Source: Candidatus Bathyarchaeota archaeon
GTDB taxonomy: Archaea; Thermoproteota; Bathyarchaeia; Bathyarchaeales; Bathycorpusculaceae
Length of the DNA stretch: 64,000 bases
Direction of reading: 5' to 3'
Assembly: GCA_963828195.1 (NCBI GenBank)
Contig: CAWHDT010000005.1
Coordinates: 448,001 to 512,000, forward strand
Shown: positions 31,206 through 63,530 of the stretch, piece by piece
How positions within the stretch are numbered: position 1 is the first letter of the stretch
Layout of the letters: every line of letters begins with the position of its first letter
Position numbers and translations under genes: made by a program
Notes under the pieces: model-generated
What the model was told of the DNA's origin: nothing
Seen by the model: the letters and a program-made list of their open reading frames with translations, nothing else
Database searches by the model: none

Positions 31206-33431
31206 TTATTCTTTCTCGAAGTATTCTTCTGGTTTTGGCGGGGTTGGTGGTAGACCTCTGCGCTCGCGAATCTTCTTAATTGTATCAGCTTGCATCTGCT
31301 CTGGAACTGGTGCCCAGCGACTAAACTGTGTTGCCCAGAAAGCTCTACCCGAAGTTGAACCTCGCAATTCATCAGCGATGCCGAAGCTTTCGGAGACGGG
31401 CATTTCAGCTTTTACAGTGATCATGTCTTCTTCAGATGGCATGTCAAGGATTTTTCCTCGCCTTTTGTTAAGCATTGTGATGACTGCGCTGACGAATTCG
31501 CTTGGAACTTTACATTCGAAACTCATGAGTGGTTCAAGTATTTTTGGGTCGCTCAGCAGTATACAGCAGTATATTGGTCGCCAGGTCATTGGAATAGCTT
31601 GTGCTGGTCCACGGTGGACTGGGTCTTCATGCAGCACTATGTCTTCTAGGTTGATTTTCAAGCCGTAAGCTGGTTCTTTAGCTAATGGCGATGTATGGAC
31701 TGCTTCACGGAACCCACCTTTAATGTGGTCTAAAATTTCCTCGACATATTGTCTTCCATGAATGCGATTGACAAGGATGCAGTTTTCTTCTACAGCAACT
31801 GCGCCTTTTGCTTCGTCTGCTTCCCATCCTAAAGCCCGCAAGGTTTTCGTTCTCTCATCTTTGCTCTGCATATCACTAATTTTATCAGACTTTATAGCTT
31901 CAATCACTTCATCTGATAACTTCTCAATAGTTATCCAAAGTTTGTTATGTTTGTTGGGGCTTTTACCCATGATCGCTGGACCGCGGTAGTCATGACTGAT
32001 GGTTTCTCGGTAGATGACGATTGGCTTGCTAAGTTTTACTTTTAAGCCTGCTTCCTGCATACGGTAAGCTGTGATTTCAAGGTGGAGCTCACCCATGCCT
32101 GATAAGAGGAATTCGCCGCTTTCTTTATTCATGACGAAATGCAGGTTAGGGTCTTCCGTTGTAAGCTTATGCATGACTTTATCGAATAAAGGCAGGTCTT
32201 TGACGTCTTCAGGCTCGACAGCTACGGTTACAACCGGGTCAGAAACGTATCTTAAGCCCTCAAACGAATGTACATCTGCACCTTCTTCAGCAACAGTTTC
32301 GCCTACATGTATTGATGGTAAACCTGAGATTGCTCCAATGTTACCTGCTGGAACACGGTCAATAAGAACACGGTCAGTTGCCATACTCATGAAAACCTGT
32401 TGAATAGTGCCTTTCTGGTTACTGCTTAACAGTTGGACAGTTTTTCCTCGCTCAACTGAGCCGCTGAAAATTCTGCCAATCGCAACAGTTCCGCTATGTG
32501 GATCAACTTCAATGGTTGATATGCACATTAGCAAAGGAGCTTTAGGATCAACTTTTGCCATTCCTTGACCTGTCGGACTGTCAACGTCTCCTGGCCAAAT
32601 CTGTGGCTGTCTATACGGTTGTGCTTCGTAGGGATTAGGTAAGTGTTTGCAGAACATATCCAAAATCGGTTCTGGCAGCGGCGCTTTTTTACTTAATTCA
32701 TCAACTTTTCTTCCAACTTCTATTGGATCGCCAGTGTATGCGTCGATAATGTCTTGGAAAGTGACTTTCTTTAATTTCATATGATCAAGATTTAAACCCC
32801 ATTTGTGCAGTGCAGAGCCGAACGCAACGCGGCTATCTTCTATTTTGACTTGCCAGTCTTGTTTGTGCTCTTTAGGCGCATACCGCTCAATTAAAGTGTT
32901 TATTCTCAAGAGAATCTTAGCAAATTTCTTTTGGATCTCTTGAGGTGTAAGTTTGATTTCTTTTATTAACCGATCAACTTTATTGATGAATAGAATTGGT
33001 TTAACACGTTCTCGAAGGGCCTGCATCAAAACGGTTTCTGTTTGAGTCATGGGTCCTTCCACAGCATCTACAACCACAAGTGCACCGTCGACTGCTCTGA
33101 GACTTCTTGTTACAGCACCGGAAAAGTCAATGTGTCCGGGTGTGTCGATGAGGTTTATGAGGTAATCTTGATTATTGTATGTGTGGACTAAGCTGACGTT
33201 TGAGGCGAAAACGGTCATTTGACGTTTCTGCTCAAGATCCCATGAGTCGAGGAAAAGTTTTTGCCCAGCAGTTTGGGTGCTTATTATTCCTGCGGCTGCA
33301 AGTAAACTGTCGGCAAGTGTGGTTTTTCCGTGGTCCACATGTGCGATGATGCTGGTGTTCCTGATGAACATTGGAGTTTCCATCAACTTCACAATTTCGT
33401 CTGTTTGCCTATAACGCGCCATACTACTCAA
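31206..33431 (-). CDS. fusA: Archaeal elongation factor 2 family GTPase (stand-alone, possibly the aEF-2 paralog)
   Basis: AHVDHGKTT, DTPGH, NKVD, GMGELHL, KSPNKHN, HEDPVHRG. Confidence 0.9.
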   Translation of the reverse strand: MSSMARYRQTDEIVKLMETPMFIRNTSIIAHVDHGKTTLADSLLAAAGIISTQTAGQKLFLDSWDLEQKRQMTVFASNVSLVHTYNNQDYLINLIDTPGHIDFSGAVTRSLRAVDGALVVVDAVEGPMTQTETVLMQALRERVKPILFINKVDRLIKEIKLTPQEIQKKFAKILLRINTLIERYAPKEHKQDWQVKIEDSRVAFGSALHKWGLNLDHMKLKKVTFQDIIDAYTGDPIEVGRKVDELSKKAPLPEPILDMFCKHLPNPYEAQPYRQPQIWPGDVDSPTGQGMAKVDPKAPLLMCISTIEVDPHSGTVAIGRIFSGSVERGKTVQLLSSNQKGTIQQVFMSMATDRVLIDRVPAGNIGAISGLPSIHVGETVAEEGADVHSFEGLRYVSDPVVTVAVEPEDVKDLPLFDKVMHKLTTEDPNLHFVMNKESGEFLLSGMGELHLEITAYRMQEAGLKVKLSKPIVIYRETISHDYRGPAIMGKSPNKHNKLWITIEKLSDEVIEAIKSDKISDMQSKDERTKTLRALGWEADEAKGAVAVEENCILVNRIHGRQYVEEILDHIKGGFREAVHTSPLAKEPAYGLKINLEDIVLHEDPVHRGPAQAIPMTWRPIYCCILLSDPKILEPLMSFECKVPSEFVSAVITMLNKRRGKILDMPSEEDMITVKAEMPVSESFGIADELRGSTSGRAFWATQFSRWAPVPEQMQADTIKKIRERRGLPPTPPKPEEYFEKE

Positions 33432-33640
33432 TCTCCATTTTCATGATGTTGGTAACTTTCAATGTATGTTTTTTAATTATATCTGGCATTTAGTGAACAC
33501 TCAAATGTGATAAACTACATGGAAAGCGAATTTGTAGCCTATTAACCTTATGGCAAACTTTCACAGAACCTTTCGGAAAAAAACAGGTGTGAATCGGGCT
33601 TTTTCGGGGTTTTTTCAAGGTTGATTTTTGCGCGAATTTT

Positions 33641-33771
33641 TAAGTTGCGACTTTTGCCCTGTGAAAGTTGCGACTTTCCGCTCTGGGTCTTTGCGTTTTG
33701 GGTTGCTTTTTTGGTTTGGGGTTTGAAGGGCTTGGCGAGCTGCGACTTTGGGATGGGCGGAATGCGACTTT
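33641..33771. repeat. Dispersed repeat copy 1 (four TGCGACTTT motifs)
   Basis: Motifs at 33646, 33669, 33741, 33763; aligns with 50824-50954. Confidence 0.85.
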
Positions 33772-33931
33772 GAATGTTGACTCTATGTAGGCGACATTGT
33801 CGGATATGGGCGAATTCTCAGCAGCAACCCAGAACCCAAACGTCACAGCTAAAACACCCAACAAACCTGCAGAGGCTTCATCGGAAAACTTGAGCACTCA
33901 GTGCGGATTTAGATTCACACTATAGAATGCA

Positions 33932-33979
33932 CAGCCTCCTAAGTTGGGGTCAAGGGTTCAAATCCCGCCTTGCCCGCCA
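33932..33979 (+). other. Orphan tRNA-Arg(CCT) 3' portion (anticodon loop to CCA)
   Basis: CAGCCTCCTAAGTTGG...GGGTTCAAATCCC...GCCCGCCA without a 5' acceptor or D arm. Confidence 0.7.
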
Positions 33980-34152
33980 AGAGCCAATTTAGGCAATTTC
34001 AGCCAATTATGCGGCCTTCAAGTCCTCAACGAAATACTAAGAGCATCCATAATGTTTCCTGGCAACTATTTCTTCAACGTAATAATCCTTAACAAATCTA
34101 GGCTTAAATACCCGAAAATGACATTCCATAAACAACAGAAGATGAAGACCGG

Positions 34153-35019
34153 GTGCCTGCTTTAGAACTGAATAATATTTCTTCAGGTTATAATAAGCAG
34201 TTAGTGTTGCATGATATTAGCTTTAAACTGCAAGAGCCATCAATCTACGTTGTTTTAGGGCCAAACGGCGTGGGCAAGACAACTTTGTTTAGGACAATCG
34301 CGGGTATTCTGGAGCCATTTAGCGGCAATATTCTCCTTGACGGACAAAACCTAACTAGCTCACGTGAAGCCCGAAAAAAGCTGAGTTTCTTCTCCCAGAA
34401 CGCAATGCCTGAAGAGATGACAGTGTACCAGGCACTCAAGTTCTATTCCAACATGGAGGGCGGAGACCCAGACAAGGCAATTGAATTGCTCGACCTCGGC
34501 GAACTGAGGGATAAACGATTTTCAGATCTTTCTCAGGGACAAAAGAAGAGGGCGTCACTAGCGAAAGTGTTTTTGTGCGAAAGAGACCTCTACCTATTAG
34601 ATGAACCCACGGCAAATCTGGACCCCGTAGTTTCAAAAGAAATTCGTGATATTATATTAAAGCTAAGCAAGGACAAAATGATTCTGTACTCATCCCATAA
34701 TCTTTATGAAGCCACCGACATCGGCACTTACCTGATCCTAATCAAAAATGGCTCAGTTTCAACGTTTGATAAAATCTCAAACATCAAACCCAAGAATTAC
34801 CGTGTAGGCATCAAAACCCAAACGGACATAACAAAAATTGTCGATGCCAAACGCGAGGGCGACTACTACGTCTTAAGCGTATCCAGCCCTCAAGAAGCAG
34901 GACTTACCCTCAAAAAACTCGTTGAAAAAGGCGTCTTAGTTACCGAAATGCGCCAATTAGATAATCCATTGCAGGAACTATTTGAAACACCCAGCACTCA
35001 AAACACAGTGAGGGCATGA
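34153..35019 (+). CDS. ABC-2 type exporter ATP-binding subunit
   Basis: GPNGVGKT, LSQGQ, LLDEP, SSH. Confidence 0.9.
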   Translation: MPALELNNISSGYNKQLVLHDISFKLQEPSIYVVLGPNGVGKTTLFRTIAGILEPFSGNILLDGQNLTSSREARKKLSFFSQNAMPEEMTVYQALKFYSNMEGGDPDKAIELLDLGELRDKRFSDLSQGQKKRASLAKVFLCERDLYLLDEPTANLDPVVSKEIRDIILKLSKDKMILYSSHNLYEATDIGTYLILIKNGSVSTFDKISNIKPKNYRVGIKTQTDITKIVDAKREGDYYVLSVSSPQEAGLTLKKLVEKGVLVTEMRQLDNPLQELFETPSTQNTVRA

Positions 35020-35022
35020 GAA

Positions 35023-35704
35023 ATGAACAATACGTTGGTTTTTGTAAAGCGTAGCCTCAACCTAAGTAAAATACTGGCGGGGGTGGGAGTGGGTCTTGCA
35101 GGCCTCGGGATCTTTGTGATATTTACCCTATCTCTTCTCGTGGGAAGTTCAAGTGCGGCGGTCTTTGTCCTTCCGGTCTCATTTATGTCTCTTGCGCTTC
35201 TAATTTTTGCAACCCCGGTTACACTTCTTTACGTTTATGATAAGAACAACGGTGTGTTGGAGTATTTGCTTTCTCTCGGGTGGAATCAAAGCGATATCTT
35301 CAAGCAATACCTGAAAGCCGCTCTCCTCCTTGCACTAATCCTCTTCACAGGCGAAGCCGCCGCGATTCTGATTGCAGGTGCCATTGCGGGGTTAATGGCG
35401 GTCTTTGCTTTGGATTTGTTGATGATGTTTCTAACGGCATTTATGGGTTTTTCAGTGGTTTCGTTGGTTACTGTGGCAATGATGGCTTTTAGCACGTTAC
35501 AGAAGCAACGAGTGGGCGCTAACACTCCTCTCGGCATGGCGATTGGCGTCCCGTTCATATTTCCCACCTTTTACCTTTCTTTCCCTCGGATTCAGCCCAG
35601 AACTGATAATTTACCTATTGCTTTGCACTTTAGCCGCTGCCCTGTCAGTTGCGTTGCTGCTTCTCTCAAGCAGGCTTATTAGAAGAGAAAAAATGCTACC
35701 CTGA
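35023..35704 (+). CDS. ABC-2 permease, frameshifted near 35584
   Basis: Multi-TM with DKNNGVLEYLLSLG; removing one C continues as LGFSPELIIYLLLCTL...IRREKMLP* ending 35704. Confidence 0.7.
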
Positions 35705-35789
35705 AAAGTTACTATTGAATTTCTTGCGCTTCACCAACTATGACGGTAAATATTCTGGCCACTTAGCGCATACCTACCCGAGGGTTAAG

Positions 35790-35818
35790 CGAGGGTTCAT
35801 AGCTATCCCCGCCCGCCA
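35790..35818 (+). other. Degenerate tRNA-Arg T-arm/acceptor remnant
   Basis: CGAGGGTTCA...TCCCCGCCCGCCA matches the end of 36741-36789. Confidence 0.45.
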
Positions 35819-35860
35819 TTGCCTTTTCGGCTGCTTTCCTTTTGTAAAAGCGCTTAGAGT

Positions 35861-36352
35861 TCATTTAATGATGGAATTGAGGTAACTATGGTATTCTTTA
35901 ACGGCATCATCCGGAAAAGGGGTGACTACTACGATTTCTTTAACTTTGGCAAGTTCCCTGTCCAGCGAGTAGACAACGGTTGTACCTAGGCTTCTAGCAA
36001 GCGAAATCAGGTATCCGTCCCAAGATTCTACGTCATACGTCGAGGCGTAATCTAGAGCGTCTGTAGCCAGATGTGTCGAAATATGAGGATAAAGAGCGGC
36101 TGATCCAGATGTGAGGATTCCCTCCATTATCTTCTTGGCGGTTAATCTTGGAACTCTTAAGTATCGAGTAGTTATGTGGTAAGCTCCCAGAATGGAGGAA
36201 ACTGGAATTACCGCTCTCCTTTTTTCCTTTAATGCTTCTGAAAGAAAGGTTATGCTGTAATCTTTGAGAGGGTTCTCGAAACAGCAGGGAACCACAACGC
36301 CAATATCGACGACGCCTTCAGGACAAGCCAAGCTTTCTTCTCGCGTATTCAC
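35861..36352 (-). CDS. PIN-domain (VapC-like) toxin
   Basis: VVDIG, ESWDGYL, YSLDREL; true start probably near 36330. Confidence 0.75.
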   Translation of the reverse strand: MNTREESLACPEGVVDIGVVVPCCFENPLKDYSITFLSEALKEKRRAVIPVSSILGAYHITTRYLRVPRLTAKKIMEGILTSGSAALYPHISTHLATDALDYASTYDVESWDGYLISLARSLGTTVVYSLDRELAKVKEIVVVTPFPDDAVKEYHSYLNSIIK

Positions 36353-36593
36353 GGCTCATCCACTTCCAGCTTTCTGTAGACTGTTCAGTGAAAGCTTGTG
36401 CTTTAAAATTCCTTGAAAGGTTCTCCCAATCTTGCACTTTTTTTTCTACATCTTTTTTCAGTGGTTCAAGTATGACTCGTTGGCCATCGATTCGCAGTGT
36501 TATTTGTCCCCCTTGCTTAATTCCAAAAGTTTCTCTTACTCGGGCAGGCAACACCATCCTTCCCTGTTCAGCCACTTTTATGGCATTTTCCAT
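36318..36593 (-). CDS. AbrB/MazE/SpoVT antitoxin
   Basis: EQGRMVLPARVRETFGIKQG. Confidence 0.85.
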   Translation of the reverse strand: MENAIKVAEQGRMVLPARVRETFGIKQGGQITLRIDGQRVILEPLKKDVEKKVQDWENLSRNFKAQAFTEQSTESWKWMSREYARRKLGLS

Positions 36594-36740
36594 CTTTACC
36601 ACCACAAACAATATCTTTCCTCAGGGCTATAAACTTTTTAACTCAGCAGTAACACCTTTTGGTTACTACATAGTCATTGCCGAATCGCTGTCATTTGATA
36701 TGGTAACGATATTGTTCGGCTTTTGAGATTAAATTGCATT

Positions 36741-36789
36741 CAGCCTTCTAAGTTGGGGGTCGAGGGTTCAAATCCCTCCCCGCCCGCCA
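36741..36789 (+). other. Orphan tRNA-Arg(TCT) 3' portion (anticodon loop to CCA)
   Basis: CAGCCTTCTAAGTTGG-GGGTC-GAGGG TTCAAAT CCCTC-CCCGCCC-G-CCA; no 5' half adjacent. Confidence 0.75.
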
Positions 36790-36913
36790 CGAATACACCA
36801 CGCCCAGTGAGAGGGTTTTACATGCGTTTTCTGGAAGAGTAGATTTTTCTATGAAATGCCTCTGTTAATCCTTCATCTTTTTATAGTTATGTGTCGAGTA
36901 GAACGCGATACTC

Positions 36914-38938
36914 TTGTCTGTTAAGTTCAAAGCCAATAGCGAGGGTCAACAACCCGATTCATTAATTTTCAATTCTAATGATAATATTTGTGAAAAATGC
37001 ACTCCGAATAAAGCTGTCGAATCATTCACAAAAAAAAGTGACACACCCAAAACGCAGCCGCCCCCCGCAAAAAACGTTGAGAAGAAAATGCGGAAAAGGC
37101 GCTTGTCCGAATTATCAAATGCAGGTTCGACCCAAAGTTTTGAGCTTGAAGAGGATACAACAAATGGAAAAGTTACGCACAAGTATTTTTGCAGTTTTTC
37201 CGATCCTTACGACATAAAACGACTAATTGAAACTAAGTCATTTTCAAATTTTGAAAGTTTCAGGCTGCATTTGGAAGCCCGCGAAATGAAGCGCTCCGCC
37301 CAAATTGATAGATTAATTTCTGCGGACTCTCTGCGAGCGAAAATAGTGCCATACAGTTTTCAGATGCAAATTGCTCTTCAAGTGATAAACGAAATGAAGG
37401 GAAACGCTATACTTGCTGATGAAGTTGGCCTCGGCAAAACAATCGAGGCTGGCCTTATCATGAAAGAACTGATTTTAAGAGATGAAATAAACTCAATTCT
37501 AATTGTAGCTCCTAAAAGTCTGTTGTCGCAGTGGAAAACTGAAATGACTGAGAAATTTGGGGAAAACTTCTCTATAGCCAATAACCATAAAGTGGATCTG
37601 TGTACCGCCAAGAGAATAATTTGTTCACATAACCTTATTGCAAGGAAATATGATGAGTTTGCAAGTAGAACTTGGGATTTAATTGTAGTAGATGAAGCTC
37701 ACGCTTTTAGAAATCCTCACAGTAAGGGACGAAGCTGCTTGGCGGGGCTTAGCAAAAATCATTTCTTGCTTCTTACCGCCACACCCTTATGCAATAAACT
37801 AACCGACTTGTACAGCATTGTGGATTTAATTCAACCAGGCATCTTTGATAGTGAACGCTTGTTCGTTTCTCGATTTGCTGAAGACTCAAAGAGCCGGGTG
37901 GTAAAGCCGGAGGGAGCATTGCAGTTAAGGCAAATACTTCAAAATGTCATGTGCCGCACTCGAAGAGAACAAACCGGCATGTCGTTCACAAAACGATACG
38001 TTGACTCCAGAACACTCGAGGCCGACGAAAGAGAACGCGAATTCATTGACAAAGCCACCGAATACCTAAGAGACATTTACAAAAATAATTTCAAAACAAT
38101 TGAAACCTTAATGAGGGAAAATCCAACCAGAAAAATAACCGATTCCCAAAGCAAAGCAATCCTAGTCTTTCAGGCAATTGCTCTTCAGCAGTCATTTTCA
38201 AGTTCCCCCGAAGCCTCAATCGAATCATTACTAAGGAGACAGCAGCGCTTCCCTTCAGAAATCCAAGCTACAAATAAACTGATTGAAATTGCAAAACAGG
38301 CCAAAAGCTCAAAAATTAAACTCCTAAAACAGGTCCTCAATGAAATCCCAAATGAGCAAGCGCTAATATTTTGTCTAAGGAGAATTACAGCTCACAAGCT
38401 TAAAGAAATGCTATATCAGGAATTCGGCAGAGCCGCCGTCTTTTTAGGTGATATGAGCCAATGCGAAAGAGACAGCGTGATTTCATCATTCAAAAAAGGC
38501 GAAGTCAAATACCTCATCGCCACTGACTCTGCAGCAGAAGGATTGAACCTTCAGAATTGCTGTGTAATGTTCAATTATGATTTGCATTGGAACCCCATGA
38601 AAATCGAGCAGAGAATCGGGCGAATCCACAGATACAAACAGGACCGCGACGTCACTGTCTTCAACCTGAGCATAAAAGACACCATCGACGACTATGTCCT
38701 TCATATTCTATACCAAAAAATCGACTTATTCACCATGACTATCGGCAAAATGGAAACTGTTTTAGCTGAATTGAAAGAAGGGTCGCAGGACATTCAAAAA
38801 ACAATCATGGCCATTTTACTAAGAAGCAATTCCCACATTGACATTAGACGAGACCTCGAAAAACTTGCTGCCGACTTGAGCGTTTCGCGGAAAAATCAAG
38901 AGTTAGCAGAAAAATTTTCGCAAGGCGTTCTTGATTGA
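36914..38938 (+). CDS. SNF2-family helicase/translocase (YqhH-like)
   Basis: ILADEVGLGKTIEA, DEAH, TATP, AEGLNLQ, DLHWNP, EQRIGRIHR. Confidence 0.92.
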   Translation: MSVKFKANSEGQQPDSLIFNSNDNICEKCTPNKAVESFTKKSDTPKTQPPPAKNVEKKMRKRRLSELSNAGSTQSFELEEDTTNGKVTHKYFCSFSDPYDIKRLIETKSFSNFESFRLHLEAREMKRSAQIDRLISADSLRAKIVPYSFQMQIALQVINEMKGNAILADEVGLGKTIEAGLIMKELILRDEINSILIVAPKSLLSQWKTEMTEKFGENFSIANNHKVDLCTAKRIICSHNLIARKYDEFASRTWDLIVVDEAHAFRNPHSKGRSCLAGLSKNHFLLLTATPLCNKLTDLYSIVDLIQPGIFDSERLFVSRFAEDSKSRVVKPEGALQLRQILQNVMCRTRREQTGMSFTKRYVDSRTLEADEREREFIDKATEYLRDIYKNNFKTIETLMRENPTRKITDSQSKAILVFQAIALQQSFSSSPEASIESLLRRQQRFPSEIQATNKLIEIAKQAKSSKIKLLKQVLNEIPNEQALIFCLRRITAHKLKEMLYQEFGRAAVFLGDMSQCERDSVISSFKKGEVKYLIATDSAAEGLNLQNCCVMFNYDLHWNPMKIEQRIGRIHRYKQDRDVTVFNLSIKDTIDDYVLHILYQKIDLFTMTIGKMETVLAELKEGSQDIQKTIMAILLRSNSHIDIRRDLEKLAADLSVSRKNQELAEKFSQGVLD

Positions 38939-40398
38939 GCACGGAATATTCGAACTCAAAGATTCGTACATTTATTGGATCGTTCGTTAAATCCAAAAAT
39001 GGAGAGTTAACTGAGCAGTCAAACGAAGTTTTTAGAGTAAAATACCCAAACCAAACAAGCAGCACAGAGTACACTTATGAGCCTTCAGTAGCACGAGAGA
39101 AAAAAATTCTTTTAATGGCGCCGGGAAGTCCAACGTTCCAGCACATTTTGGATGAATGTTTAGAAAACGGTGTTCTATGCCAAATTAAAGTAAACCCGAA
39201 AGGCGAATTGGAAACACTACTCAAAAACAACTTTAAAGATTCACCTTTTGATTGCCAAGATTGCCAAAAAGTGACAGCTGGCGATAAATCGTTTAGTGTT
39301 TGCGAGAAAACCCAACAGTGTTACCACCAAATAAACAATGGAAAAATCGTTTCAATAAAAGTTATTAAAAAAGAGCCAGCGAGATATTATCGACTTTATT
39401 TCTCCGCAGCATTCCGCAACAAATCGAGGCCAAGGAATGAAGAGTTGATTACATTTTTGATGGATGAAGCTGGAAATATTGTTGACGCTGAGGATTTTTA
39501 CGGAAAAAATATTTTGGATAATGAAGCGTTAGAGATTCAAGATTTTAAGGCGAAGCTTAACCCAGAGGTGTTTGATGAGTTAAAGTCTGTTGCAGACAAA
39601 AAAATGGCGGAAATTATAAAGGAAAAGTTGGTTCTCTTTGATTTACCTCTCAGTAAGGAGAAGGATGCTAAACTAAGAAGCTTCGATAAAAGACTTCGGC
39701 GGGAACGTCTTGAACAGGCAATTAATAGTAAATACGATTTTGACTCGCAGAAGTGGCAAGCTACCTACGAAGCGCTCATGAGAAAAGAAGAAGAATCACT
39801 AGCAACCTGCATAGACATAAAATTCATCAATCTGCTTGTAATCAACACAAATAAGGTTACCTTTGAAATAAGCCTTGATAACAACGCAACCGTACATTCA
39901 TCAATCATCTTAGGCATTAATCATACCGCGGAAGTTAACTGCCCAATCTGCCGAAATGATTTCTCTGAAGGTTATGCAACCGAAGATTCGTTCTACTGTT
40001 GCGGAAACTGCATTAGACAATCCATTGAGACAGGAAAAATTTATTCAAAAAAAGTGGCCCTAAAACTGGACGAAACATTGAATGAATATTTTGAGCAAGA
40101 CGAAGGTTTTGTCTGCTCAGTCTGCGGCAAGAGACACAGTCGCTTACTGGAATTCAAATGCAGCTATGACGATTCAAGCGTATGCATTTTTCATTATGAT
40201 TATTGCGATTTTTGTGGTGAAATTTTCTCAAAACTTAACTTAACTTCCACGCATGAATTCCAGCGAAAACTATGTCCAAAACACACCGTCAAATGTGAAA
40301 ACTGCAAAGCAGTTATTGGAGTTGACGAAGTCAAGGTTTGTCAAGTCACTGGCGAAAGACTTTGTGTCAACTGCATGGATAAGTCGAGGATGCATTAA
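38935..40398 (+). CDS. YqhG-like protein with coiled coil and multiple C-terminal Zn-finger motifs
   Basis: Overlaps the helicase stop; CQDC, CPIC, CCGNC, CSVC, CDFC, CPKH, CENC, CVNC. Confidence 0.7.
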   Translation: MSTEYSNSKIRTFIGSFVKSKNGELTEQSNEVFRVKYPNQTSSTEYTYEPSVAREKKILLMAPGSPTFQHILDECLENGVLCQIKVNPKGELETLLKNNFKDSPFDCQDCQKVTAGDKSFSVCEKTQQCYHQINNGKIVSIKVIKKEPARYYRLYFSAAFRNKSRPRNEELITFLMDEAGNIVDAEDFYGKNILDNEALEIQDFKAKLNPEVFDELKSVADKKMAEIIKEKLVLFDLPLSKEKDAKLRSFDKRLRRERLEQAINSKYDFDSQKWQATYEALMRKEEESLATCIDIKFINLLVINTNKVTFEISLDNNATVHSSIILGINHTAEVNCPICRNDFSEGYATEDSFYCCGNCIRQSIETGKIYSKKVALKLDETLNEYFEQDEGFVCSVCGKRHSRLLEFKCSYDDSSVCIFHYDYCDFCGEIFSKLNLTSTHEFQRKLCPKHTVKCENCKAVIGVDEVKVCQVTGERLCVNCMDKSRMH

Positions 40399-40399
40399 G

Positions 40400-41333
40400 A
40401 TGGGGACTTTGAGGTTTAACGGGGTTTTAGAAGAAATTAAAGAGCGATACCCAAACATCGATTTAATGCAGTTTCTACAACAGAAACTTCAGATTCCCGA
40501 CTACAAGGCAGAAAAATTGGCTGCCCGTATAGAAAAACAATTCTTCCAAAAAGAAACAAACAAAACTGAGCGAAAATATGTAAGAACAGTGTCGCAAAAA
40601 AACAGTAAATCCATGATTCCTTCAGAAACACGCGCTTATTCAGTTGATTGTCTTTCGGGGAAGGAATTTGAGTTTTTTATTGAGTGGCTGTTTGAAGAAC
40701 TAGGGTACGAGGTCCATTCGGAAAAGCATTCAACTTGTTTCGGGGTTGACTTTGTGGCTGCAAAGGATGGCGAGATTGTTGCCATTCATGCCCGAAGGTA
40801 TCCTAAAACTTACATGGTATCCGATTCTATTCTTTTAATGTCGCAGAACGCAAAGTGTACCTTTGGGTGTCAGAGGTCGATTGTATTAATCACCGCATAT
40901 TTTACGCCCCAAGCAATAGATGACGCTAAAAGGTTAAATGTCGAACTTTGGGACAAAGATAGCCTTACATGCAAAATTGATGAGGTAAGGAAAAAAGCTA
41001 CAGTGAAAGGGCAGTCTCGTTTTCCCCAGTTTACGGGGTCGCTTGCTCAAACTCTTTTAAAGTTTGAAGAAGCAGGAGATTTCATTATAGAACCCAAGGC
41101 AGCGGGAAAATTCGATTTGCATTTGACGGGAGTAAAATTTCCCTCTTTTAACCTTTCAAGTCCATGCTAATGAAGTCACTCGATGCGTCTACAGAATTAA
41201 AAACAACGGACCAGTTGGAGAACATGACGGCACAGTTTTGATTAACAGCGAGCGCGACAACAAAAGAATCGGCCCAAATGACACCAATGCATACGCATCA
41301 ATAATTCAGTATCTTGAGACATTTTTCACCTAA
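40400..41333 (+). CDS. Mrr-like restriction endonuclease domain protein, frameshifted near 41142
   Basis: LSGKEFEFFIEWLFEELGYEV...GVDFVA...FTPQAIDDAKRLNVELWD; removing one C extends the ORF to TAA at 41333. Confidence 0.75.
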
Positions 41334-41460
41334 CCACCGATCACTGTAGCGGAGCTCAAATCTCTTCGTGCGCTTCCGTTTGCTCAATTTTGCCCATTGA
41401 AATTGTAAAATGCGGTGAAGGCTCTGCAAGGTTTTTATTTGCTCCTTGCAATGTAAAGTT

Positions 41461-42349
41461 GATGTCAGCTAAACAGTTTTTCATAGACCGCTACGCGGAG
41501 CTCGGTTGGGCATTTCGGGAAGTTAACCTGAAGCAGTCAATCCGAATAAACCAAACCAACGTTAAAGGAAAAAATCTTCCCGACAGGCTCCGCGGCTTAG
41601 GCGTCGAACTTGAGAAAATCCCTTTTCTGGCGGCGGGGTGGTGGGTTGGAGAATCCAAAGTTTCCGTCGGCGCCACAGCCGAGTACCTACTGGGCATGTA
41701 CTCTGTTCAGGAGGCAGCAGCGCAGATTCCCGCCGCGCTCTTCACTGCTTTAAGAGGCAAAACGGTGCTTGACGCTTCAGCGGCGCCGGGCGGAAAAACC
41801 GTTCAGCTGGCGGACTTGATGGAGAACAGCGGAGCCATAATTGCTTTGGATGAAAACAAGCAGCGGTTGGTGGCAATGGCGAACCATTTGGAGCGCTGCC
41901 ACGTCAGCAACACAATCGTTTACAATCTGGATGCCAGGCAAGCTGCAACACTGAACCGCGTCTTTGACCGCATACTTTTGGATGTTCCCTGCTCGGGCAA
42001 CTTTGCCTCTGACAGCCAATGGCTTTACCGCAGAACCCTCGCGGACGTGGAGCGGAACGCGAAGGTGCAGCGGGAAATTCTCTCTGAAGCTACAAAATGT
42101 TTAGCGGCTGATGGCGAAATGGTTTATTCTACTTGTTCACTGGAGCCTGAGGAAGACGAGTTGAACATGGATTGGGCTGTCAAAAACTTGGGGCTACAAA
42201 TTCAACCCATTGACTGCATCGGGGTAGAAGGGTTAACTGAGGTTTTCGGCAGAAAACTTGACGCTCAAATTGCAAACTGCAGAAGAATCTGGCCACAAAA
42301 AACACAGGGCTTCTTCGCGTGCAAACTGAAAAAGGCGGCGGCGAAATGA
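41461..42349 (+). CDS. RsmB/NOL1/NOP2 RNA m5C methyltransferase
   Basis: AAPGGKT, ILLDVPCSG, YSTCS, GFF. Confidence 0.9.
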
Positions 42350-42979: not shown

Positions 42980-44452
42980 ATGGTGAAAGTCATGGATGAA
43001 CAAGTAAAGAAAGCAATTGAAACCCTCAAATCAAACAATATTCGATGGGTGCACTCTGCATTCGTCGATGTAAGAGGAATACTTCAAGACATGGTTCTGC
43101 CCGCCCGAGAATACATAAGCGGCTCAGCATTCACCGACGGCATCGGCTTCGACGGATCTTCAGTACGCGGCTTCAAATCAATCGAAGAATCCGACATGAT
43201 CTTTATGCCTGACGCCAAAACCTTATCGATAATGCCCTGGGTAACTGATGAGGCGCAGAAAAGCGCAATCGTACTCGGCGACGCATTGGAAGCTTCAGGG
43301 GGAAAAGAACCCTCCGTTGCTTGCCCAAGAGGCTACGTTGCAAAAAGAGCAATTAAAGCGGCCAAGGACATGGGGTACACTGGAATTTTCGCTCCTGAAC
43401 TTGAACATTTCGTGTTTACGTCAATTGACCCCACCAAAATGACCTGGGACCTTTGGGCAGCTCCAAAAAGCGGAGAAGGAGATGCTTGGGGTGCGCCAAG
43501 GGTTGTGCCAAACTCGCCAGAAGTAACTCCCGGCGGCTTCATACTCAGACCTAAAGAAGCTTACTATCGAACTCCGCCCGAAGACACAACGGTTGAGTAC
43601 CGGAACGAGGTTTCACAGGTTTTGGAAGATAACTTTGGCTTAACAATCGAGAAGCATCACCACGAAGTAGCAACTGTCGGCCAAGTAGAAATCGACTACA
43701 AATACGGTGAACTGCTGGAAACCGCTGACCGAGCACTCTTCTTCAAGTTCGTCGCCAAAAACATCGCTAAGAAACGCGGCTTAATCGCCACTTTCATGCC
43801 GAAACCCATCTACCTTGACAACGCCAGCGGCATGCACGTTCACTCAAGCATATGGAAAGACGGGAAAAACGCAATGTATGACGCAGAAGATGACTACTGT
43901 GAACTCAGCCAAACTGGCAGATACTACGTCGGAGGCATACTTGCCCACGCTAAAGCTTTAACTGCAGTGTGTTGCCCAACTGTGAGCAGCTACAAACGCT
44001 TAGTGCCAGGCTTTGAAGCGCCAATTTACGTTATGTGGTCCAGAGCCAACCGATCTGCACTTGCCCGCATCCCTATGTACTATAAGGGTCCTTCTCATCA
44101 GGCGCAAAAAAGAGTTGAGTACCGAGGCGTTGACCCATCATGCAACCCATATCTGGCATTCGCATGCATTATGATGGCTGGTTTCGACGGAATCAAAAAG
44201 AAACTTGATCCAGGCGACCCAGTTGACGAAGACGTTTACAAACTAAGCAAAGCAAAACGCAAAGAACTAGGCATAAAAGAGCTCCCCACCACGCTCAAAG
44301 GCGCGCTAGATGAAATGGAAAACGACGACGTCATAAAAGAAACCTTAGGCACCCACGTGTTCGACGCATTCATTGAACTTAAAACAAACGACTGGAACCA
44401 ATACTGCCTCTACGTTTCGCCTTGGGAAATAATGAAGTACCTCGACTACTAA
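42980..44452 (+). CDS. glnA: Glutamine synthetase type I
   Basis: FDGSSV, HHHEV, FMPKP, NASGMHVH, KRLVPGFEAP, NRSA. Confidence 0.95.
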   Translation: MVKVMDEQVKKAIETLKSNNIRWVHSAFVDVRGILQDMVLPAREYISGSAFTDGIGFDGSSVRGFKSIEESDMIFMPDAKTLSIMPWVTDEAQKSAIVLGDALEASGGKEPSVACPRGYVAKRAIKAAKDMGYTGIFAPELEHFVFTSIDPTKMTWDLWAAPKSGEGDAWGAPRVVPNSPEVTPGGFILRPKEAYYRTPPEDTTVEYRNEVSQVLEDNFGLTIEKHHHEVATVGQVEIDYKYGELLETADRALFFKFVAKNIAKKRGLIATFMPKPIYLDNASGMHVHSSIWKDGKNAMYDAEDDYCELSQTGRYYVGGILAHAKALTAVCCPTVSSYKRLVPGFEAPIYVMWSRANRSALARIPMYYKGPSHQAQKRVEYRGVDPSCNPYLAFACIMMAGFDGIKKKLDPGDPVDEDVYKLSKAKRKELGIKELPTTLKGALDEMENDDVIKETLGTHVFDAFIELKTNDWNQYCLYVSPWEIMKYLDY

Positions 44453-45252: not shown

Positions 45253-46617
45253 ATGAGAAATTTCAAAGATGCTGTTTGGAAAGAGAGCGTAACAAAAGTA
45301 ATTCAGGAATTACGTGAACAAGAAATCAAGTTCATCAGACTTCAATTCACCGACATAAATGGCATGTTAAAGAATTTGGCTGTAAGCGCAAAAAATATTG
45401 AAGCAATATTTGAAAATGGCCAATCTTTTGATGGATCCTCCATAACAGGTTACAGGCCCATCGAGGAGTCAGACATGGTGCTGTACCCTGACCCCACTAC
45501 CTTCGCGGTTCTGCCTTGGAGACCGAAAGAAAAGTCTTCTGCTAGGCTGCTCTGCGACATTTACACTCCGCAAAACAAGCGTTTTGAAGGGGATCCAAGG
45601 TACGTTCTTGAACGAGCCATTGAAAAAGCGTCCAAAGCAGGCTTCACATTCATGTGCGCGCCTGAACTTGAGTTTTTCATAGTTGAAGAAAGCGAGACCG
45701 GCGGCTTGCCAACACCCATTGACATGGCTGGCTACTTTGACTTTCATCCTGGAGACTTAACAGACGACCTCAGACGGGAAATCGCTGACACGGCGGAGGC
45801 TTTCGGTATTGAAATCGAGATTTCGCATCATGAAGTTGCGTTGGGGCAAAATGAAATTGACTTCAAATACGATGAAGCCTTGAAGACGGCTGACAGAACC
45901 CTTACAATGAAAATGTGCGGGAAAGTGGTTGGTGCACGAAACGGCTACATAACCACGTATATGCCTAAACCGTTCTCAGGCATAAATGGTTCAGGAATGC
46001 ATACTCACCAAAGCCTCTGGAACAAAAACGTGTCGCAAAACCTCTTTTACGAAGACAACGAAAAGAACGGCTTCCTATCAGACCTAGCAAGAAACTTTAT
46101 AGGTGGACAATTAGCACACGGACGCAAAATGTGCGCAATACTTGATTCATGGCCAAACAGCTTCAAACGTTTAGTCCCAGGCTACGAAGCACCAGTTTAT
46201 CTTGCTTGGGCACACAAAAACCGTTCACCGCTTATCCGAGTGCCAAACTTCGGCGGAAGAAAAAACGCTGCCCGATGTGAAATCCGCTGCCCCGACGGAG
46301 CAGGAAACCCGTACCTGCAGTTTGCAGTGCTTTTAGCCGCGGGTTTGGATGGCATCAAGAACAGGATTGACCCAGGCGACCCAGTGGAGCTAAATGTTTA
46401 TCAGATGACCTATGAAGAACGAAAAGAACGAAACATCGTTTCACTACCAGAATCCCTGCAAGAGGCGCTCGATGAGCTTGAGACCAGTGATTTGATGCGT
46501 GAAACACTTGGCGAAACCGCATTTGACAATTTCCTGCGAGAAAAACGCAGAGAATGGGACCTCTACCGCACACAAGTCACAGAGTGGGAAGTCAACCGCT
46601 ACATAAAACGGCTTTAA
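45253..46617 (+). CDS. glnA: Glutamine synthetase type I, second paralog
   Basis: FDGSSI, HHEV, YMPKP, NGSGMHTH, KRLVPGYEAP. Confidence 0.92.
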   Translation: MRNFKDAVWKESVTKVIQELREQEIKFIRLQFTDINGMLKNLAVSAKNIEAIFENGQSFDGSSITGYRPIEESDMVLYPDPTTFAVLPWRPKEKSSARLLCDIYTPQNKRFEGDPRYVLERAIEKASKAGFTFMCAPELEFFIVEESETGGLPTPIDMAGYFDFHPGDLTDDLRREIADTAEAFGIEIEISHHEVALGQNEIDFKYDEALKTADRTLTMKMCGKVVGARNGYITTYMPKPFSGINGSGMHTHQSLWNKNVSQNLFYEDNEKNGFLSDLARNFIGGQLAHGRKMCAILDSWPNSFKRLVPGYEAPVYLAWAHKNRSPLIRVPNFGGRKNAARCEIRCPDGAGNPYLQFAVLLAAGLDGIKNRIDPGDPVELNVYQMTYEERKERNIVSLPESLQEALDELETSDLMRETLGETAFDNFLREKRREWDLYRTQVTEWEVNRYIKRL

Positions 46618-51779: not shown

Positions 51780-52184
51780 TTAGAGCCATTTTGTTTTGGT
51801 TTCTTTTATTTGCCTGATGTGTCTGTCGTCAGTTAAGATGTAGTCGCTGGACGATGCGATTGCCGTTGCCGCTATGATGGCGTCGGCTGTGGGCAGCTCA
51901 GCGTATTTGCAGCGGAGTTTTGCAGCTTTAATTGCGATGGGCACATCAAGACAGGATAGTTTAAGGTCTAATTTGAGTAGAGAGCTGACTCTTGATTCGG
52001 CCACGGCTTTTCCAAGATTTTGAAGCTGGAACTTGTAAAATTCATGTATTACTATTGATGGAACAACACCTAAATTTTCTTTTCTTTGAAGAGTTTCAAA
52101 GGTTACTCTTAACCATTTTTTGAATTGCTCGTCAGGTGTTGCCAAACTTTCGATAAGAAGCCGCGTGTCAATAACAGCTTTCAT
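51780..52184 (-). CDS. vapC: VapC PIN toxin
   Basis: AVIDT, IHE, ADAIIAATA, TDD. Confidence 0.85.
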   Translation of the reverse strand: MKAVIDTRLLIESLATPDEQFKKWLRVTFETLQRKENLGVVPSIVIHEFYKFQLQNLGKAVAESRVSSLLKLDLKLSCLDVPIAIKAAKLRCKYAELPTADAIIAATAIASSSDYILTDDRHIRQIKETKTKWL

Positions 52185-54021: not shown

Positions 54022-54303
54022 ATGACTGTAAGCATAAAAATAGACGATTTAAAAAAACAAAAACTCGATCGTTTCCTAGCTCAGCTGCTACTAACGGAAG
54101 GCAAAAAAGTAACGCTTCAGGAAGCAGTAGGGCTTATGATTGACCATGCACTGGAAAACCAGGATGAATTCATTCAAAACCTAAAAGACTTACCACCACT
54201 TGAAGATGATCCAATCTGGAAAATGATGGAAAATGCAAAACATTTAGGTATTAAAGACTTATCGACAAATATTGATGAATATCTCTACGGAAGCCAAACT
54301 TGA
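54022..54303 (+). CDS. Antitoxin (VapB-like)
   Basis: RHH-like N-terminus; C-terminal DLSTNIDEYLYG. Confidence 0.75.
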   Translation: MTVSIKIDDLKKQKLDRFLAQLLLTEGKKVTLQEAVGLMIDHALENQDEFIQNLKDLPPLEDDPIWKMMENAKHLGIKDLSTNIDEYLYGSQT

Positions 54304-54710
54304 TGGCGATTTTTATCGATACAGGAGTCTTCCTTGCTCTTTATAATGTTGACGATCATTATCACCAAAAAAGCAAAGAATTGATCAAAAACGCCTTAAC
54401 GGGAAATCTCGGAAGATTGTATACCTCAGATTACATAATAGATGAGGCTATAACAACCCTATTGGCAAGAACGAGACAACACAAGATAGCGGTAGAGCTA
54501 GGAAAATACCTGATTGAATCACCAAGAATAACAAAGCTAACCGTAGACCAGGACGCATTTATCGTTGCATGGTCAAAATTCAAGAGTATGGAAGACAAAG
54601 GTCTAAGCTTCACAGATTGCACCTCCATAGCGCTAACAGAGAAACATGGGATAAAACAGATAATGAGCTTCGATTGCGGGTTCGACGGCTTAACCCAAAG
54701 AATATGCTAA
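54300..54710 (+). CDS. vapC: VapC PIN toxin
   Basis: IFIDTG, IIDE, LSFTDCTS, SFD. Confidence 0.88.
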   Translation: MMAIFIDTGVFLALYNVDDHYHQKSKELIKNALTGNLGRLYTSDYIIDEAITTLLARTRQHKIAVELGKYLIESPRITKLTVDQDAFIVAWSKFKSMEDKGLSFTDCTSIALTEKHGIKQIMSFDCGFDGLTQRIC

Positions 54711-57592: not shown

Positions 57593-58648
57593 ATGCCAAT
57601 TCAAAATCTCACGATAAGAAATTTCAAATCAATAAAGAACATGGAGCTGAACTGCAAAAGAATCAACATATTTATTGGAGAACCAAACACAGGAAAATCA
57701 AACATCTTGGAAGCAATCGGTCTGCTATCACATGCAGAATACGGACATCTGAGCAGTTTTGTGCGATTTGAAAGTTTGTTAGACATATTTTACGACAGGA
57801 GCCTAAGTGACCCTATCAGTATAATATTTGACGAGAATGCTTTAACAATAGAATTTAAGGACGGATGTTTTGTAGGAAATTTTCTTAATTCGTTGCAAAC
57901 GCCAGGAGCTCATCCCGTTAAACAAAATATCCATATTTTTAATTATGATTATTCCGGAAACCCACGTCCAAATTTAAGTTCACCAGGGCAAATACAATGG
58001 CATATGCTTAATGGAGAACGCAAGAAAGTTCTGGCACAGTTCAAGTATTATCGTTTCAGCAGAAAAGAGTCTTTTGTCAACCAAAGTTCTGATTTTCTCT
58101 TGCCTCCTCAAGGAGACAACTTGTTGCATATTATCTTAACCAAAAAAGACCTGAGAGGCGTAATTTCAACATTATTTAAAAAATATGGATACCGAATTGT
58201 TTTCAAGCCCCCTGAAGGCAAAATTGAAGTTCAAAAAGAGCAAGAGGATGTAATTGTTTCAATTCCTTACGCTCTGTCCTCTGAAACTCTTCAAAGAATA
58301 ACCTTTTATCTTGCTGCCATTTACTCCAACAAGAATTCGATAATAAGCTTTGAAGAACCAGAAGCTCACGCTTTTCCATATTACATGAAGTATCTGGCAG
58401 AAAAAATTTCAATGGACAGAGTCAATAATCAATACTTTATTGCAACGCATAATCCCTATTTTCTGATGTCAATTATTGAGAAAACTCCAAAAGAGGACAT
58501 CGCAACTTTTGCAACCTATTTCGAAGAATACCAAACAAAAGTCAAACCACTCACTCAAGAAGAGACTGAAAATGCTTTGTCCATGGGAGCTGACTTGTTC
58601 TTTAACATTGACCAATTTCTAGGCAAGATTGAATGCGAAGGAAATTGA
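57593..58648 (+). CDS. OLD/AAA_15/AAA_21-type ABC ATPase
   Basis: IRNFKSI, GEPNTGKS, FEEPEAH, ATHNP. Confidence 0.88.
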   Translation: MPIQNLTIRNFKSIKNMELNCKRINIFIGEPNTGKSNILEAIGLLSHAEYGHLSSFVRFESLLDIFYDRSLSDPISIIFDENALTIEFKDGCFVGNFLNSLQTPGAHPVKQNIHIFNYDYSGNPRPNLSSPGQIQWHMLNGERKKVLAQFKYYRFSRKESFVNQSSDFLLPPQGDNLLHIILTKKDLRGVISTLFKKYGYRIVFKPPEGKIEVQKEQEDVIVSIPYALSSETLQRITFYLAAIYSNKNSIISFEEPEAHAFPYYMKYLAEKISMDRVNNQYFIATHNPYFLMSIIEKTPKEDIATFATYFEEYQTKVKPLTQEETENALSMGADLFFNIDQFLGKIECEGN

Positions 58649-59141
58649 TGCTATGATATTTGTTGAATGCATACCAGACTACACGTTAGTATGCAAATTA
58701 AGGTCAAGCCCAACTAAGAAAGTTGAACATTCTTTCGGCAAAACATCGGTTCTCAACAAGCTCATTAGAAGAACGGGAGTTCCCAATTATGAAAACTCCA
58801 TCGGGATGATTGATGAAGACCCGCTTAGTAATCAGCCCAAAACAATCAGAAGTTTTGTTGAAAAAGCTCAGATTCCTGAATGTCAAATAAAAATACTCTA
58901 TTACGAATTTCTAAATAACCATATTTTGGTTTTAAGCCCCAGACTTGAAGAGTGGTTGATAGCTTCTGCGAATGAAGCGGGGATAAGCATGTCCGATTTT
59001 GAGTTACCCAACAATGCCGAGCAACTCCATCAAATAATAAACTTGAACGTTGACAAGTTAACTCTACTGATTGATGCTTTGCTGGAAAAGAGTAATAGAA
59101 TGAAGGAACTCAAGAAGTGTATCCTTGGACTGTATTTTTAA
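58629..59141 (+). CDS. TOPRIM-like partner of the ATPase
   Basis: IFVECIPD, GK..V, GMIDED, PRLEEW; overlaps the ATPase. Confidence 0.6.
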   Translation: MNAKEIDAMIFVECIPDYTLVCKLRSSPTKKVEHSFGKTSVLNKLIRRTGVPNYENSIGMIDEDPLSNQPKTIRSFVEKAQIPECQIKILYYEFLNNHILVLSPRLEEWLIASANEAGISMSDFELPNNAEQLHQIINLNVDKLTLLIDALLEKSNRMKELKKCILGLYF

Positions 59142-63131: not shown

Positions 63132-63530
63132 TTATTCCCAAATTCGCCTAACCCAATCTACTCGTTCAAAGTCTTTATCGTGCGAATATATTTCGCTTAT
63201 GTTAGCTTCGTTCATTACTTGTAATGTTAATGAATCGACAAAATCAATCTGTTTTTCATACATTTCTGGAATTGAAGGAAGAAAATTTTCCCATATTGCG
63301 CTAATTTTTTCAAGTGAGGCATACGAGTTTACTGCCATCAGAAATCCCCCTATTTCTTTTCTCCGATTATTGTATTCTAACCAGTCAACAACTTCCTGAA
63401 TAACAGCTGAACTCGTTGCGGTCGCTTCACCATTTTCAATTCGTTTGAGAATTTTTTTTGAAATTTCATAATCCTCTTTAGGAGATTGCCTGATGGCATA
63501 TATGAAAACGTTTGCATCAACGAACCTCAT
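63132..63530 (-). CDS. vapC: VapC PIN toxin
   Basis: FVDANV, IQE, FVDS, SHDKDF. Confidence 0.88.
   Translation of the reverse strand: MRFVDANVFIYAIRQSPKEDYEISKKILKRIENGEATATSSAVIQEVVDWLEYNNRRKEIGGFLMAVNSYASLEKISAIWENFLPSIPEMYEKQIDFVDSLTLQVMNEANISEIYSHDKDFERVDWVRRIWE

Follow-up and report, generated by a model that had tools for sequence, protein, structure and literature searches.

What role does a gene cassette play in an archaeon when it couples a SNF2-family motor to a nuclease-fold protein and places a cysteine-rich protein between the two? The question is raised by a 64,000-nucleotide stretch of the genome of a soil archaeon, Candidatus Bathyarchaeota (GCA_963828195.1, contig CAWHDT010000005.1, C5:448001-512000), here called the window, which belongs to a 2.83-Mb, 9-contig assembly. 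Named relatives of the window proteins come from Bathyarchaeia or Bathyarchaeota metagenome-assembled genomes (MAGs). Three plus-strand open reading frames (ORFs) follow one another in the order SNF2 ATPase (gene 1), Cys-rich partner (gene 2) and Mrr_cat protein (gene 3), and we refer to them as the trio (Table 1). Our comparisons suggest, with a probability of about 0.45, that the trio is a horizontally mobile three-gene module with an accessory conflict (anti-virus or anti-plasmid) role of the HmaA/ZorD type. Points in favour of a defence-like role are that the trio is patchily distributed, decays in places, changes its location and has apparently crossed between domains, and that it resembles SNF2-nuclease defence proteins. 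The parts appear to be of known kinds, and their combination in three genes around a RapA-like Zn-ribbon adaptor appears to be new.

The arrangement of the genes supports the view that they form one conserved, translationally coupled unit. The partner ORF start overlaps the SNF2 stop by 4 bases, and the partner stop at 40396-40398 is followed after a 1-base gap by the ATG of gene 3 at 40400. This overlap and gap recur in five of the six loci with junctions read, and the order SNF2-partner-Mrr holds at each of the 15 loci compared within one Bathyarchaeia genus, which bears out the three tightly coupled genes described in the original prediction. That prediction had also named an unlinked third gene in homologous loci as a reason to abandon it; gene 3 is linked in all 15, and fusions of partner and Mrr_cat exist, clear in P0052 and P0152 and weak in P0169 (E 7.7e-4; 20 bits, just under the 21-bit cut-off). 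The trio is also found beyond the archaea. In a Bacillota MAG, reached through a remote member of the partner family, a 614-aa SNF2 protein, a 671-aa partner homologue and a 340-aa Mrr_cat protein are encoded with gaps of 7 and 4 bases among metabolic genes. The Bacillota SNF2 protein is 44% identical to that of the window over 583 residues and, in a maximum-likelihood tree with a midpoint root and a long bacterial branch, joins the genus clade with 99/99 support, leaving SNF2 proteins from other Bathyarchaeia families outside. This grouping suggests that the whole cassette was transferred between domains.

Judged by its domains, gene 1 is a SNF2 family ATPase. Both Pfam domains score above their gathering cut-offs (SNF2-rel_dom, 125.4 bits against 24.9, E 3.2e-36; Helicase_C, 91.8 bits against 23.5, E 4.1e-26), and motifs I-VI are intact, as had been predicted: GLGKT, DEAH, TATP and QRIGRIHR are all present, and their residues do not vary among 17 aligned relatives. 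Low complexity marks the N-terminal ~95 residues, the full length (1-674) is kept at 82-89% in four close relatives, and genes 1 and 2, both intact in the window, are 76-89% identical to those of the closest relative. The nearest solved structures are SsoRad54 (E 1.6e-33) and RapA, to residues 123-637 of which the core aligns in a PDB sequence search (E ~1e-31). In NCBIfam the nearest curated families are DrmD, DpdE and RapA, all far below cut-off, and the best neighbours across PADLOC and NCBIfam are DrmD, BrxH, HmaA, DpdE and ZorD. There is strong support for gene 1 as the predicted ATPase core of a RapA/DrmD-clade SNF2 translocase.

The partner is the most distinctive component of the trio. 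It has no family assignment in Pfam or NCBIfam and no credible PADLOC match. The Cys/His pairs and coiled coil first noticed in the sequence are present as four invariant clusters (C107/C110/C123/C129-H131; C336/C339/C356/C359; C394/C397/C409/C417; C424/C427/C447/H450), a fifth CxxC pair set at the C-terminus of long forms, and a long (coiled) helix at residues 210-288. In the structural model (mean predicted local distance difference test score, pLDDT, 76.6), residues 1-~310 are predicted to adopt a fold like the Spacer and C-terminal domain (CTD) of RapA with an inserted Zn site and the long coiled helix, and residues ~330-487 form an array of three to four Zn ribbons. The sole confident fold match pairs residues 1-308 of the model with RapA 706-968 (Foldseek E 3.5e-6). 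VIA returns the same match at Z 8.9, with a root-mean-square deviation (rmsd) of 7.8-8.9 A over 232-234 aligned residues, and the next unrelated row stands at Z 4.2. The domain list in PMC8501970 places 706-968 in the Spacer/CTD end. Since the SNF2 protein aligns to RapA 123-637 and the partner folds as Spacer/CTD, genes 1 and 2 look like a split RapA-like enzyme, and on the models the two together are colinear with RapA. These predicted folds strongly support gene 2 as a polypeptide of its own that stands in for the C-terminal Spacer/CTD region of RapA. Searched against the PDB, the Zn-ribbon region returned only weak RING/B-box matches (E 0.028-2.9), which were not used.

Complex prediction, one of the checks originally proposed, is consistent with a physical pairing of the two proteins. 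Three runs with SNF2 residues 100-674 and partner residues 1-335 gave a score of 0.70, against 0.48 for the best control, a mark that 58 of 80 solved complexes and 2 of 110 mismatched pairs attain. Contacts agreed to at least 62% between runs, with a partner pLDDT of at least 70, and the predicted interface lies on SNF2 residues 100-145. The models strongly support an arrangement in which gene 2, with its Zn-ribbon array, binds gene 1 at the helix that immediately precedes the ATPase lobes. Because RapA itself is solved, the pass may reflect memory or likeness and not independent evidence.

The partner family is tiny: a search of 1.84 billion representatives gives 51 clusters at E<=0.001. Its remote long forms P0148 and P0156 owe their extra length to more Cys-rich repeats, and BLASTP detects no similarity between either form and gene 3. 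A relation to YqhG, suggested by the original label of the partner, received only indirect backing. The Pfam YqhG family (PF11079) matches neither the window partner nor two relatives at E<=0.1, and finds nothing in the genome of the window at E<=1, with a positive control in B. subtilis. What stands of the label is the RapA C-terminal fold and a proximity to YqhG clusters by language-model features (0.91; 12 of 30 matches), which is a lead only. The SNF2-partner pair itself reaches further than the trio. In two other Bathyarchaeia families, SNF2 genes (33-38% identity) are followed by a gene for a Cys-rich protein that is a remote partner homologue (hhalign 92.7%, E 4.3e-7); pairwise BLASTP between these proteins and the partner is insignificant, and the relation is visible by profile comparison only. 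No Mrr gene accompanies these pairs where the contig continues, which argues that the SNF2-partner pair is older and wider than the trio.

Gene 3 carries the Mrr-like domain assigned to it at the outset. The window protein scores 54.6 bits against Mrr_cat (PF04471; cut-off 21), and 32 of 32 relatives match this family at E<=1, the best at 8.4e-20. The model of an intact relative is closest to AF1548 (Z 11.5, rmsd 2.5 A, 109 aligned), followed by the catalytic domains of AspBHI and MspJI (Z 9.6-10.0, rmsd 3.2-3.7 A, 123-129 aligned). We regard it as strongly supported by this modelled fold that gene 3 encodes a restriction-endonuclease (REase)-fold, Mrr-like protein, and the fusions give equally strong support to its predicted tethering through gene 2. 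The catalytic site is unusual. With positions set by alignment to the E-C-K motif of AF1548, the helix Glu is kept in 32/32 aligned sequences and the Asp in 25/32; the Glu/Gln position holds Q in 17, L in 11, H in 2, S in 1 and I in 1, and the canonical catalytic Lys position holds R in 27, I in 4, T in 1 and K in none. A register shift of one residue would bring K/R to the Lys position, but would leave Ala at the acidic position. Conservation in the family is highest in the C-terminal domain, where invariant columns cluster at 248-305 and for which the ESM Atlas gave no usable match. Two further likenesses were dropped: that of the N-terminus to TFIIS domain II (PHF3, E 0.036), backed by Pfam in 0/32 members, and matches of the model to Rpb5, which cover the generic REase-like domain only.

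In the window, gene 3 does not run open to 41333, as had been assumed. Its frame from 40400 stops at 41168-41170 after 256 aa, compared with 305-322 aa in intact relatives, and the family's conserved last ~65 residues are encoded at 41136-41333 in another frame. The switch at ~41136-41143, placed by two tblastn pieces, falls in a run of short homopolymers. Contigs of three public runs cover parts of 40300-41450 without differences, and 41119-41157 lies outside their cover; no RNA run was listed as holding the locus. The frameshift may disable the module in this genome.

The distribution of the trio indicates that it is a horizontally mobile module with no fixed core locus. Our class-wide sample comprised 201 genomes, including 12 other genomes of the window's genus. 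All three proteins occur in the same 9 of these 12 and none in the other three, whose completeness is 97-100%. The window query detected no partner in the 17 genomes from other genera of the family, nor elsewhere in the sample apart from one 51-residue Zn-ribbon match. Across the genus, 66 of 120 genomes carry the partner (46 of 73 among good-quality ones), and decayed copies occur, with many stops in G177 and G270 and several others split. Flanks differ at every trio locus examined. The backbone GlnA-GlnA-PUA-NOP2...EF-2 around the window trio is kept in G295 and G268, where the trio is absent and the ~3.4-kb NOP2-EF-2 interval holds, in G295, a single ORF of 932 aa that weakly resembles P-type ATPases; the trios of these two genomes sit on other contigs. 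Since the same backbone holds other content there, the window trio sits in a variable segment, and the vertically conserved core locus that would have spoken against the original prediction is not what we find. The segment (33432..41389) contains both tRNA fragments, an ABC ATPase gene, a 219-aa ORF, a PIN gene and the trio. A second empty site was not obtained, because synteny around the two TFIIB (TFB) orthologues in the window's genome differs from that at the TFB-linked trio loci described below.

A tRNA-Arg remnant lies just upstream of the trio, as first noted: it is a 3' fragment whose last base is 36789, leaving 124 bases to the start of the SNF2 gene. No whole, split or intron-containing tRNA was found at the two Arg fragments with ARAGORN, or with Rfam even at E<=1. 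A 98% identical copy of the TCT-type fragment lies on another contig (C1:424906-424952), and the intact tRNA-Arg(TCT) is 233 kb away (C5:745681-745730). The three orphan tRNA-Arg 3' fragments (CCT and TCT types), which lack 5' halves, resemble old integration scars. No integrase was seen in the window and no third tRNA-fragment repeat downstream of the trio within it. With no whole tRNA, integrase or downstream repeat, an integrated element containing the trio could not be defined.

Several described systems share parts with the trio, and in scans at the level of hidden Markov models (HMMs), including PADLOC 2.0, the trio passes no curated cut-off of a named defence system. Among the closest is E. 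coli RapA (HepA), an SNF2 ATPase associated with RNA polymerase, which resembles it in the ATPase core over 123-637, the fold of 706-968 and the colinear order. RapA holds its parts on one chain, described in PMC8501970 as seven domains including the N-terminal domain, Spacer and CTD, whereas the trio splits them into two genes, shows no counterpart of the RapA N-terminal domain, and adds the inserted Zn site, three to four Zn ribbons and an obligatory REase-fold third gene. Gene 1 reaches 181.6 bits against the RapA equivalog (PRK04914), for which the cut-off is 576. In Bacillus, yqhH-yqhG offers the same two-gene layout of a short SNF2 ATPase and a partner (~260 aa). The trio partner is twice as long and bears Zn ribbons, and a third gene is added; the partner lacks a Pfam YqhG match, but its N-terminal part lies near YqhG clusters in feature space. 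YqhG itself may have a RapA C-terminal fold.

Defence systems with SNF2 motors were compared in the same way. HmaA of the Hma system and ZorD of type I Zorya fuse SNF2 to a PD-(D/E)xK/Mrr-like nuclease and share with the trio an SNF2 motor and a REase-fold domain; the trio differs in having three separate proteins, a novel middle subunit and a non-canonical catalytic site. One ZorD model in PADLOC (PDLC00631) is matched colinearly, by gene 1 at model positions 409-888 and by gene 3 at 913-1060. ZorD carries an Mrr-like domain according to PMC11890865. Gene 1 obtains 77 bits against the ZorD equivalog cut-off of 1500, and Pfam scans of the flanks contain no MotA/MotB-like or ZorC-like family that could represent ZorA, ZorB or ZorC. 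The PADLOC model of HmaA matches gene 1 at E 3.7e-57, only over positions 73-416 of 1176. PMC11232893 reports HmaA as SNF2 with a C-terminal PD-(D/E)xK nickase that is needed for T4 defence; HmaB and HmaC have no PADLOC match in the flanks at E<=1e-10. DISARM DrmD is the best-scoring family for gene 1 (PADLOC E 1.5e-76; NCBIfam 257 bits), with 257 bits against 950 and 235 against 610 for its equivalogs, and neither the partners DrmA, DrmB (DUF1998) and DrmC (PLD) nor a methylase occur in the annotated flanks of the loci. At HMM level, PADLOC 2.0, Pfam and NCBIfam contain no three-gene architecture built around a RapA-CTD-like Zn-ribbon adaptor, and searches of one open-access library on SNF2+Mrr archaeal defence and on YqhG/YqhH brought up no description of it, which is short of proving absence. 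This agrees with the original view that the composition is unlike that of named systems, the partner itself having no credible PADLOC match.

The colinearity of genes 1 and 2 with RapA, missed in the original prediction, opens a reading in transcription or repair. The split SNF2 motor could then serve genome maintenance in the manner of RapA or YqhH-YqhG, by removing or remodelling stalled RNA polymerase or other DNA-bound complexes, a possible account that we hold to be less likely than the conflict role; the same goes for its corollary, in which the REase-fold subunit would be a DNA or structure binder, or a nickase, in transcription-coupled or UV damage repair. Colinearity extends to the C-terminal region of RapA, the partner lies near YqhG clusters by the feature comparison above (0.91; 12 of 30 matches, a lead only), and a yqhH knock-out lowers UV survival in Bacillus thuringiensis according to PMC10054049. 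The housekeeping flanks and the degenerate catalytic site of gene 3, which fits a non-destructive role, point the same way, as do the neighbours: of the 15 loci, two have uvrABC beside the trio, one has a Hel308-type helicase, and four have a TFB paralogue, these four being found in both major clades of the SNF2 tree. However, the two uvr-adjacent loci are not independent because both belong to one small clade. A maintenance factor is also hard to reconcile with a module that was not found in 27 of 73 good genus genomes, nor in other genera with the window query, and that moves between loci and between domains. In E. coli, RNA polymerase engages the N-terminal domain of RapA to activate the ATPase (PMC8501970), and no counterpart of this domain is seen; since the host of the trio is archaeal, the bacterial RNA-polymerase contact elements described there are not directly applicable. 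The RapA equivalog score (182 against 576), the lack of a Pfam YqhG match and the weak TFIIS-domain-II-like match of gene 3 (E 0.036; Pfam backing in 0/32) likewise speak against maintenance.

Modification-dependent (Type IV-like) restriction, in which the Mrr-fold protein would recognise and cut modified foreign DNA and the SNF2 motor would translocate, had been proposed originally and now seems very unlikely. Gene 3 does belong to Mrr_cat, its closest folds after AF1548 include the catalytic domains of the modification-dependent AspBHI and MspJI, and the module lacks a DNA methyltransferase (Pfam; window and annotated flanks). The earlier statement that there is no methyltransferase holds for this class of enzyme and fails for the RsmB/NOP2-type RNA methyltransferase that follows at 41390-42349. 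Set against this, the AspBHI and MspJI likeness is limited to the generic REase core, Pfam identifies no modified-base reader domain in gene 3 (window protein and 32 members), the catalytic Lys is missing at the aligned position in 32/32 with varying Asp and Gln positions, and nothing points to modification-dependent action. The window copy might instead be a decaying relic, which is compatible with any of the roles considered and which we judge unlikely. The frameshift at ~41136-41143 would remove the conserved C-terminal domain, the most conserved part of gene 3, and copies elsewhere have decayed (G177 and G270 with many stops, several others split). The shift lies, however, in short homopolymer runs of a 9-contig assembly at a site (41119-41157) outside the cover of public contigs, and may be a sequencing error, and genes 1 and 2 remain intact, with 76-89% identity to those of the closest relative.

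Several observations weigh against the accessory conflict role, which we consider the most likely. Gene 1 stays far below the curated NCBIfam cut-offs (DrmD_b 257 against 950; RapA 182 against 576; ZorD 77 against 1500), so its likeness to defence helicases is at clade level only. From the window and 13 related loci, 89 flanking proteins were scanned with PADLOC; nine had matches at E<=1e-10, all of them generic proteins with housekeeping roles (Hel308, two cysteine desulfurases, UvrA and ABC ATPases). No recognisable defence genes and no defence-island context are present in the scanned flanks, which consist mostly of housekeeping genes. Viral contigs returned 46 pattern matches, none of them a trio relative. 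In gene 3, the canonical PD-(D/E)xK signature (Asp ... (Glu/Gln)-x-Lys) is found in none of 32 sequences, and 30 of 32 relatives also match the 'inactive REase' family NA-iREase1. Because of the non-canonical signature and these matches, a nuclease effector role is not assured, and the Mrr nuclease effector of the original prediction is doubtful, the more so with gene 3 frameshifted in this genome.

If the conflict role is correct, the three gene products would build one DNA-acting machine. The Zn-ribbon array and the REase-fold subunit would select or hold the DNA target, the SNF2 motor would then translocate on duplex DNA, and the outcome would be DNA cleavage or nicking, or the stripping of bound proteins. 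A more specific proposal, which we advance only tentatively, is that Bacillota and Bathyarchaeia have exchanged a three-part system in which a CTD-derived Zn-ribbon adaptor on a split RapA-type motor recruits a remodelled REase-fold protein; such a system could be a new anti-virus defence based on translocase-driven eviction or nicking and not on classical restriction, or else the first archaeal RapA-like polymerase-clearing factor.

Table 1. Features of the trio and its surroundings, in window positions.
Feature	Position	Strand	Details and basis
SNF2-family ATPase, gene 1	36914..38938	+	674 aa; Pfam, PDB sequence search, NCBIfam
Partner protein, gene 2	38935..40398	+	487 aa; alignment, model, Foldseek, VIA
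Gene 3, first 256 codons (N-terminal helical domain, then Mrr_cat)	40400..41170	+	Premature frame end; Pfam, relative's model, fold search
Gene 3 one-base frameshift, approximate site	41136..41143	+	tblastn pieces in frames +2 and +3 meet
Gene 3 out-of-frame remainder (NFPLLTFQ...YLETFFT, stop)	41136..41333	+	38-55% identity to 9/9 relatives
Variable 8-kb segment between conserved aEF-2 and NOP2 genes	33432..41389		Backbone comparison with G295 and G268
tRNA-Arg(CCT)-like 3' fragment, anticodon arm to CCA, without 5' half	33930..33979	+	87% identical to second fragment
tRNA-Arg(TCT)-like 3' fragment ending in CCA	36737..36789	+	124 bases upstream of SNF2 start
TTTATA, possible archaeal TATA box	36880..36885	+	~30 bases before SNF2 start codon; conjectural
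aEF-2	31206-33431	-	Housekeeping neighbour
RsmB/NOP2-type RNA methyltransferase	41390-42349		Next gene after trio; core gene, unlinked to trio elsewhere

Neighbouring genes at the related loci and in the window include several of separate interest. The bacterial-type uvrB/uvrA/uvrC genes lie directly beside the trio at L024:1132-7662 and L027:12637-19957, in two genomes of one clade. The TFB paralogue adjoins it at L084:14642-15616, L085:13242-14216, L086:6640-7614 and L088:7144-8109, in two of these four loci 146 bases upstream on the same strand, and L085 and L086 encode a large-terminase-like gene ~1.6 kb beyond the paralogue. Two copies of the same TFB, at 84% identity, occur elsewhere in the window's genome without the trio. 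At L087:7003-8044, Pvc16_N and T4 gp19-type tail-tube genes of a contractile injection system or phage-tail-like kind adjoin the trio. The window surroundings otherwise comprise genes for a PUA protein, two glutamine synthetases, Nre and a tRNA splicing endonuclease, interspersed with PIN and HepT toxin-like genes. Five PIN-domain (VapC-like) genes (2801-3139, 35861-36352, 51780-52184, 54300-54710 and 63132-63530) and a HepT-like RNase gene (9973-10323) amount to a high density of toxin-antitoxin-type genes for 64 kb. The two glutamine synthetase paralogues (42980-44452 and 45253-46617) are ~36-38% identical to each other; four relatives have both, at 91-95% identity and with their order unchanged. 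At 57593-58648, an AAA_15/AAA_21 ATPase matches the AriA, GajA, OLD and AbiL-type ATPases of PADLOC (E ~1e-19), and an overlapping 170-aa ORF without family (58629-59141) may form a two-gene defence pair with it.

Combinations of an SNF2 motor and a nuclease fold recur in prokaryotic immunity, in ZorD, HmaA and DrmD-containing DISARM, and RapA-type motors recycle RNA polymerase. In both cases, how accessory domains steer the SNF2 motor is poorly understood. The module studied here divides the parts among three small proteins that could be separately expressed and mutated, namely an ATPase core, a RapA-CTD-like Zn-ribbon adaptor and a REase-fold protein. As a defence system, the trio would add an archaeal and bacterial type that PADLOC 2.0 does not match at HMM level; as a RapA-like factor, it would be relevant to the way in which stalled transcription complexes are cleared in archaea. 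The trio also offers a clean example of whole-cassette transfer between domains.

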